Assembly: GCF_003334765.1 (NCBI RefSeq)
Contig: NZ_QOWT01000065.1
Reading direction: 5' to 3' (one strand)
Origin: Escherichia coli
GTDB lineage: Bacteria > Pseudomonadota > Gammaproteobacteria > Enterobacterales > Enterobacteriaceae
Length of the DNA: 5,359 bases
The notes under the pieces: model-generated
Told to the model about the DNA's origin: nothing
Databases searched by the model: none
What the model saw: the letters and a program-made list of their open reading frames with translations, nothing else
Shown here: positions 5,202 through 5,359 of the stretch, piece after piece
How the letters are laid out: the number at the start of each line of letters is the position of its first letter
Numbering within the stretch: the stretch's first letter is position 1
Position numbers and translations under genes: made by a program

Positions 5202-5358
5202 ATCTGATCTCTGCCCACGCTTGAGATTTTCTACAATCGTCAGCGTCGTCACTCTCGTCTGGGGAATATCTCCCCGGCAGCCTTCAGGGAAAAATATCAT
5301 CAGATGGCTGCTTAAAAAAAGAACAAATGGTAGTGTCCGCTATTGCCAGTACACCTCA
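5202..5358 (+). mobile_element. Right end of a second IS3-family element (transposase OrfB C-terminus plus right inverted repeat), truncated on its left by the IS3-like fragment
   Basis: Plus strand ends ...GTGTCCGCTATTGCCAGTACACCTCA at 5358, an IS3-family-type right terminus ending in CA. Its reverse complement TGAGGTGTACTGGCAATAGCGGACAC matches the IS3 IRL TGATCTTACCCAGCAATAGTGGACAC at 19 of 26 positions. The upstream coding fragment is listed separately. Confidence 0.6.
5208..5315 (+). pseudogene. IS3-family transposase (OrfB, DDE integrase-like), C-terminal fragment of about 35 codons plus stop
   Basis: Plus-strand frame 5208-5315 translates to SLPTLEIFYNRQRRHSRLGNISPAAFREKYHQMAA*. The FYN..R.HS.LG..SP..F pattern is the conserved C-terminal signature of IS3-family OrfB transposases. 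No start codon, and an in-frame stop at 5205-5207 immediately upstream, so it is a fragment. Confidence 0.6.
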
Positions 5359-5359
5359 C

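Follow-up and report, generated by a model that had tools for sequence, protein, structure and literature searches.

An IS600 3'-terminal remnant among transposon scars upstream of the agg3DCB-agg5A fimbrial operon of an enteroaggregative Escherichia coli virulence plasmid

The right edge of the window, by which we mean the whole stretch of 5359 bp that was analysed, carries what we take, with a probability of roughly 0.88, to be the dead 3' tail of an IS600, lying among transposon scars just upstream of the AggR-regulated agg3DCB-agg5A operon. The window is the agg3DCB-agg5A (AAF/V) cluster of the pAA virulence plasmid of enteroaggregative E. coli (EAEC). EAEC pAA-type plasmids match it over its full length at 99.8-99.9% identity, and in RefSeq its minus strand is annotated with agg3D (chaperone), agg3C (usher), agg3B and agg5A, that is, the AAF/V fimbrial cluster. 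The AAF/III plasmids, including that of strain 55989, have everything in common with the window except the pilin gene region, and across AAF/III and AAF/V plasmids the 5.4 kb as a whole are 99-100% identical. The original prediction had counted at least four IS-derived pieces in this DNA and had seen in them a pattern typical of the accessory regions of virulence plasmids. Both statements stand: the plasmid is the EAEC pAA, and the census comes to five or more pieces derived from IS, with a single base of one more at the right end (Table 1).

Table 1. Insertion sequence pieces and associated features in the window
Feature	Position	Strand	Remarks
IS3 left end	1-104	minus	99% identical to the IS3 of the F plasmid
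IS256-family right end	105-243	plus	encodes the C-terminus ...WRMAMSRFIIEFGDRLDGHF, followed by a stop
IS256-family left-end fragment	243 to ~476	minus	
IS3-like left end	5109-5201	minus	
Spacer, 19 bp, ATCTGATCTCTGCCCACGC	5202-5220	plus	non-IS600
IS600 3'-terminal fragment	5221-5358	plus	nt 1127-1264 of 1264
IS600 OrfB, last 30 codons and TAA stop	5223-5315	plus	from translation
IS600 right inverted repeat	5329-5358	plus	ends 5'-...CCTCA-3'
IS629/IS1203-like orfB fragment, first base (nt 596)	5359	plus	continues to the right of the window

Identity and coding capacity of the IS600 remnant

IS600 belongs to the IS3 family. Shigella has it in abundance, and in E. coli fragments of it are common; by the ISfinder convention a DNA identity above 95% denotes the same IS. 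The stretch 5221-5358 is IS600 by nucleotide identity to the copies that RefSeq labels as such: it is identical at 138 of 138 positions to the 3' end of thousands of copies labelled 'IS3-like element IS600' (E ~1e-65). As reference we used the complete 1264-bp copy on Shigella sonnei pSS_046 (locus L006, 377-1640), whose termini are TGAGGT...ACCTCA, with a CTG/CTG duplication around it, and here too the identity is 100%, from nt 1127 to the last base of the element. In this alignment identity begins at TTGAGATTTTC (5221), while the IS600 sequence preceding nt 1127 (...GTAATACGGGAATACA) bears no relation to window 5202-5220. Among 5426 complete E. coli genomes, 2910 had megablast matches to 5202-5359. 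The copies annotated as IS600 match only from query position 20 to 157/158, which is window 5221 to 5358/5359, at 98-100% identity, and the full 158 bases were matched among these genomes only in pAA-type plasmids.

The original prediction had recognized here a second, different IS3-family element in plus orientation from an OrfB-type transposase C-terminus and an IRR-like terminus ending in CA at 5358, and in all of this it was right, the element being IS600 and the terminus its right end. This end reads ...GTACACCTCA at 5349-5358, as is usual for the 5'-TG...CA-3' termini of the IS3 family, and when the right repeat is reverse-complemented (TGAGGTGTACTGGCAATAGCGGACACTACC), 20 of its 30 positions agree with the IS600 left repeat, the terminal TGAGGT included. 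Translation from 5202 gives I, a stop, and then the predicted peptide, SLPTLEIFYNRQRRHSRLGNISPAAFREKYHQMAA, up to a second stop. The first of these stops is a TGA at 5205-5207 that interrupts the frame, only 30 codons (5223-5312) are derived from IS600, and the OrfB stop codon of the remnant lies at 5313-5315.

A complete IS600 has both inverted repeats, an orfA and an orfB linked by a -1 frameshift, and a DDE triad. The remnant lacks the left repeat, orfA, the frameshift site and the DDE residues. It retains 30 of the ~270 codons of OrfB (EIFYNRQRRHSRLGNISPAAFREKYHQMAA), and the DDE residues, which in the full OrfB lie in VWVADLTY, HHSDRGSQY and NAPMESFW, were all encoded upstream of the breakpoint. 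The remaining peptide matches positions 350-369 of the 369 positions of the NCBIfam model NF033516, IS3-family transposase (E 3e-4), and PGAP leaves the remnant unannotated. Because it has one inverted repeat and no transposase, the remnant is unable to transpose. On NZ_CP093070.1, a plasmid that is 99.8% identical to the whole window, we found no other IS600 DNA beyond these 138 bp. At most, the remnant may supply 138 bp of homology for recombination with the IS600 copies of many E. coli chromosomes.

The junctions on either side of the remnant

On the right, nt 1264 of IS600 (5358) is joined directly to nt 596 of an IS629-like element (5359), with zero extra bases. Beyond 5359, NZ_CP093070.1 has a frameshifted pseudogene that RefSeq calls 'IS3 family transposase' (88437-89100). 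The same plasmid carries a complete IS629/IS1203-type copy of 1310 bp, to nt 596-1282 of which this continuation aligns at 95.8% identity. The ends of the complete copy are TGAACCGCCCCGG, and it includes an AL1L pseudoknot feature; related copies are labelled IS1203. The boundary at 5358/5359 has the look of a transposition junction, of IS600 into an IS629/IS1203-like element. The right flank of IS600 begins with CCA (IS629-like nt 596-598), which presumably would be the 3-bp target duplication; the left end of IS600, next to which the other copy would lie, is absent. The other half of the IS629-like target was not found on the same plasmid, on which the two 5' fragments stop at nt 420 and at nt 226, short of nt 595-598. 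Neither was an intact IS600 found at the IS629-like site among complete E. coli genomes, nor a plasmid that keeps the missing left part of IS600 or the other half of its target.

The exact IS600/IS629-like junction was observed in 16 complete plasmid records from independent isolates, and those of the junction-bearing records that also appear in the whole-window search are all AAF/III or AAF/V pAA plasmids. The combination of the nt 1127 breakpoint with IS629-like nt 596 as neighbour is specific to these two plasmid groups. Misassembly is common in IS-rich regions, and IS repeats misjoined in the source assembly might have produced a chimera of this kind, but the junctions recur unchanged in many complete plasmids that were sequenced independently and come from different hosts (human, Canada goose, seawater). 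We therefore regard the junction as a real feature and the probability of an assembly artefact as negligible. The IS600 remnant is inherited by descent within the pAA plasmid family. In O104:H4 chromosomes 12-13 further bases are matched past the IS600 end, and these we rejected as a chance extension (TATCGTTACGG versus CCAGTTGTTACGG). A literature search on agg5A with insertion sequences, and on IS600 with enteroaggregative plasmids, found no title or abstract on the IS600 junction.

On the left, 5201-5109 matches IS3 nt 1-95 at 92.6% identity, so that the IS3-like fragment expected in minus orientation with its terminus at 5201 is indeed there. The 92.6% is the identity to IS3 copies in E. 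coli genomes, a match that stops exactly at 5201, and the IS3 of plasmid F aligns over the same nt 1-95. The terminus is TG on the minus strand, and the fragment comprises the left inverted repeat together with 13 codons from the start of orfA (MTKSVSTSKKASI). It is a relative of IS3 and not IS3 itself, since it is 92.6% identical to IS3 where the IS3 end at 1-104 is 99% identical, and the two ends (the latter compared at window 10-107) are 91.8% identical to each other.

According to the original prediction, this IS3-like element had inserted into the second element and cut it at 5201/5202, giving a nested IS junction. In favour of this are the short distance of 19 bp between the two IS ends and the clean transposition end that the IS3-like element has at 5201. 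On this point, however, the prediction did not hold. Homology to IS600 begins at 5221 and the break is at 5220/5221, 19 bp from where it had been placed, and the DNA between the two ends is not IS600, so the supposed host does not abut the supposed insert. The same junction of IS3-like end and spacer occurs in the pAA plasmid of C700-09 without IS600, NZ_CP093070.1 is without any 5' part of IS600, and the DNA beyond the IS3-like fragment (to 5108) is the agg3D promoter region and not more IS600. From the spacer and from the C700-09 junction we therefore conclude that IS600 was not cut by the IS3-like element, and a nested insertion is highly improbable.

The spacer has no match to IS600. A 31-base query across it (5196-5226, made up of 6 bases of the IS3-like end, the 19-bp spacer and 6 bases of IS600) found full matches in the plasmid collection only in 15 agg3/agg5 pAA plasmids, and the AAF/III plasmids have a version of this junction that is shorter by one base. 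Outside pAA plasmids the 19-mer was not found by exact and 3-mismatch search of the fetched loci or by short-query BLAST. Short sequence matches suggest that it is probably the relic of a finO-like gene (finO nt ~200-218). The spacer matches finO nt 200-221 at 20 of 23 positions with one gap, a short match. In the C700-09 pAA the sequence next to this IS3-like end is ATCTGACTCTGCCCACGCTGGATGATCCCGTG..., after which comes more DNA that is not IS600, with a truncated IS66-type tnpA and IS1 beyond the finO-like piece and no IS600 sequence at the locus. It is also conceivable, if less probable, that the spacer is filler or otherwise untraceable DNA left by a rearrangement and resembles finO by chance. 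That the match in the window is so short and gapped is in keeping with chance, as is the observation that in C700-09 the similarity to finO ends after 32 bases and gives way to unrelated short matches. Yet the 32-base version matches the finO of two plasmids, that of the plasmid itself (nt 200-231) at 28 of 32 positions and that of another plasmid at 30 of 32 (E 5e-4 against 7.3 Gb); it reads in frame as LTLPTLDDPVST, where FinO has LNLPTLDEAVNT; and the IncF plasmids on which the cluster is found normally have finO in their backbone. A finO-like origin thus seems to us the better explanation of the spacer.

Two further features of the C700-09 plasmid (NZ_LT719075.1) were observed. About 50 bp (L007 7605-7655) separate the 32-base finO-like piece from the truncated IS66-type tnpA, and the short matches of this stretch include sites under DUF1281-domain genes of other IncF plasmids. 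The plasmid also has a second agg3B with an adjacent 171-aa 'hypothetical protein', in inverted orientation (L007 718-1848) and at a distance of ~1 kb from where the main cluster ends; the pilin gene of the main cluster is annotated only as 'adhesin'.

From these junctions we infer the following as the most likely history, with the order of its steps tentative. IS600 would have transposed into the IS629/IS1203-like element at nt 595/596, producing the clean junction at 5358/5359. Independently, an IS3-like element would have transposed into a finO-like gene near nt 199/200, producing the junction at 5201/5202. A later deletion or illegitimate recombination may then have joined finO-like nt ~218 to IS600 nt 1127 (5220/5221), with an overlap of one base, a single T that can be assigned to either parent, and this join would have removed the first 1126 bp of IS600. 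The IS3-like element would itself have been cut to 93 bp (IS3 nt 1-95), with its breakpoint at 5108/5109.

The agg3D promoter and the edges of the fimbrial cluster

A consensus for AggR-dependent promoters is available, and a promoter of this type has been predicted for agg3D in an AAF/V strain (PMC7781526). In the window, the predicted AggR site, ATTTTTTTATC (5064-5054, minus), matches WWWWWWWTATC upstream of agg3D (ATG at 4988), and a predicted -10 element, TATACT (5032-5027), lies 21 bp downstream of it. Only 45 bp lie between the predicted AggR site and the mosaic of IS remnants upstream of it, and the mosaic is conserved in AAF/III and AAF/V plasmids alike. One might suppose from this that the remnants are themselves regulatory, for example by providing the agg operon, or the pseudogene downstream, with an outward promoter or an upstream element. 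We consider this scarcely likely. By the published consensus (PMC7781526) the predicted AggR site and -10 element (5064-5027) fall wholly within unique DNA, 45 bp away from the start of the IS3-like fragment; IS600 is directed away from the operon and towards the frameshifted IS629-like pseudogene; and recent common descent, with 99-100% identity over the whole 5.4 kb, explains the conservation. A mechanical ORF of 303 aa (4236-5147, minus) has the IS3-like orfA start (MTKSVSTSKKAS...) in frame and without a stop into agg3D, the annotated start of which, at 4988, lies inside its span. This ORF is probably a coincidence, because the predicted AggR promoter sits inside it.

The same pattern of scars is found in AAF/III and AAF/V plasmids, and the region upstream of agg3D therefore has a single common origin. 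A more far-reaching interpretation is that a discrete fimbrial module has its edge at the scar set common to both (the IS3-like end, the finO relic, the IS600 tail and the IS629-like fragment), and that the direct repeats bracketing the operon, namely the IS3-type ends (1-104 and 5109-5201) and the 36-bp IS256-type ends described below, mediated by homologous recombination the movement of the module or the exchange of pilin alleles (agg3A versus agg5A). This may be so, but we give it a low probability.

Several observations concern the left edge and the surroundings of the cluster. The two IS256-family fragments meet at ~243, where a right end encoding ...KWTMPLKNWRMAMSRFIIEFGDRLDGHF and a stop faces an inverted left end. 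The left-end fragment (243-476, minus) encodes the first ~55 residues (MDEKQLQALANEL...), and both fragments match one PHROG transposase family, the right end its C-terminus and the left end its N-terminus; the same short peptides had no match in NCBIfam. Of the two, RefSeq annotates only the second (243-476, minus). A second, directly oriented copy of the last 36 bp of the IS256-type right end (GAGACAAGGCATTTACACAGAATCTTAAACAGGCTC, 208-243) lies at L001 12051-12086, ~690 bp to the right of the window end and just past the IS629-like fragment. Between the two copies of this repeat, ~5.8 kb apart, are the fimbrial operon and its IS scars. The operon is likewise flanked by two IS3-type left ends, both on the minus strand (1-104 and 5109-5201), of which the left one is part of a complete IS3 in NZ_CP093070.1. 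That these are two copies of one element was considered and rejected, their mutual identity being only 91.8%. In two near-identical plasmids, NZ_CP117007.1 (71012-79367) and NZ_CP025574.1 (41917-48002), the equivalent of the window is in two pieces spanning 8.4 kb and 6.1 kb, respectively, and the split region of the former includes the ltrA gene of a group II intron. This suggests that in some isolates there are extra insertions within or beside the cluster.

Our results correct the map of this edge of the AAF/V locus, which has three junctions and not one, with in addition a probable finO relic. The IS600/IS629-like junction and the junction of the IS3-like end with the spacer could serve as markers of the pAA lineage. 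The IS600 tail as such implies no new biology; it is a feature of a known kind and of small significance.

Comparison with other insertion sequence relics

The F plasmid offers the nearest parallel to the left part of the mosaic, for there too an IS3-type element adjoins finO-type sequence on an IncF plasmid. In F, however, the IS3 lies at finO nt ~396-398 with an AGC duplication and in the same orientation as finO, whereas the pAA junction would correspond to finO nt ~199/200, with the IS facing the other way and sharing only 92.6% identity with IS3. A relic of the F-plasmid IS3::finO was accordingly rejected as the source, and the IS3-like/finO-like junction of pAA is an event independent of the F-plasmid insertion. 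For IS600, pO157-type plasmids, with a 567-bp 3' fragment, and a chromosomal copy cut by IS30 likewise have 3'-terminal relics beside fragments of other IS. The junction is not the same as in pO157-type plasmids, since the flank differs: in these an IS91-family fragment adjoins the truncated 5' side of IS600, and beyond its right end comes a piece of a different transposase. Set against a complete IS600, the remnant agrees with it in the C-terminus of OrfB, in the stop codon and in the right inverted repeat with its final CA, but amounts to only 11% of the element. It is an already-known element in the form of an ordinary inert fragment, one of those that make up the IS graveyard of a virulence plasmid.
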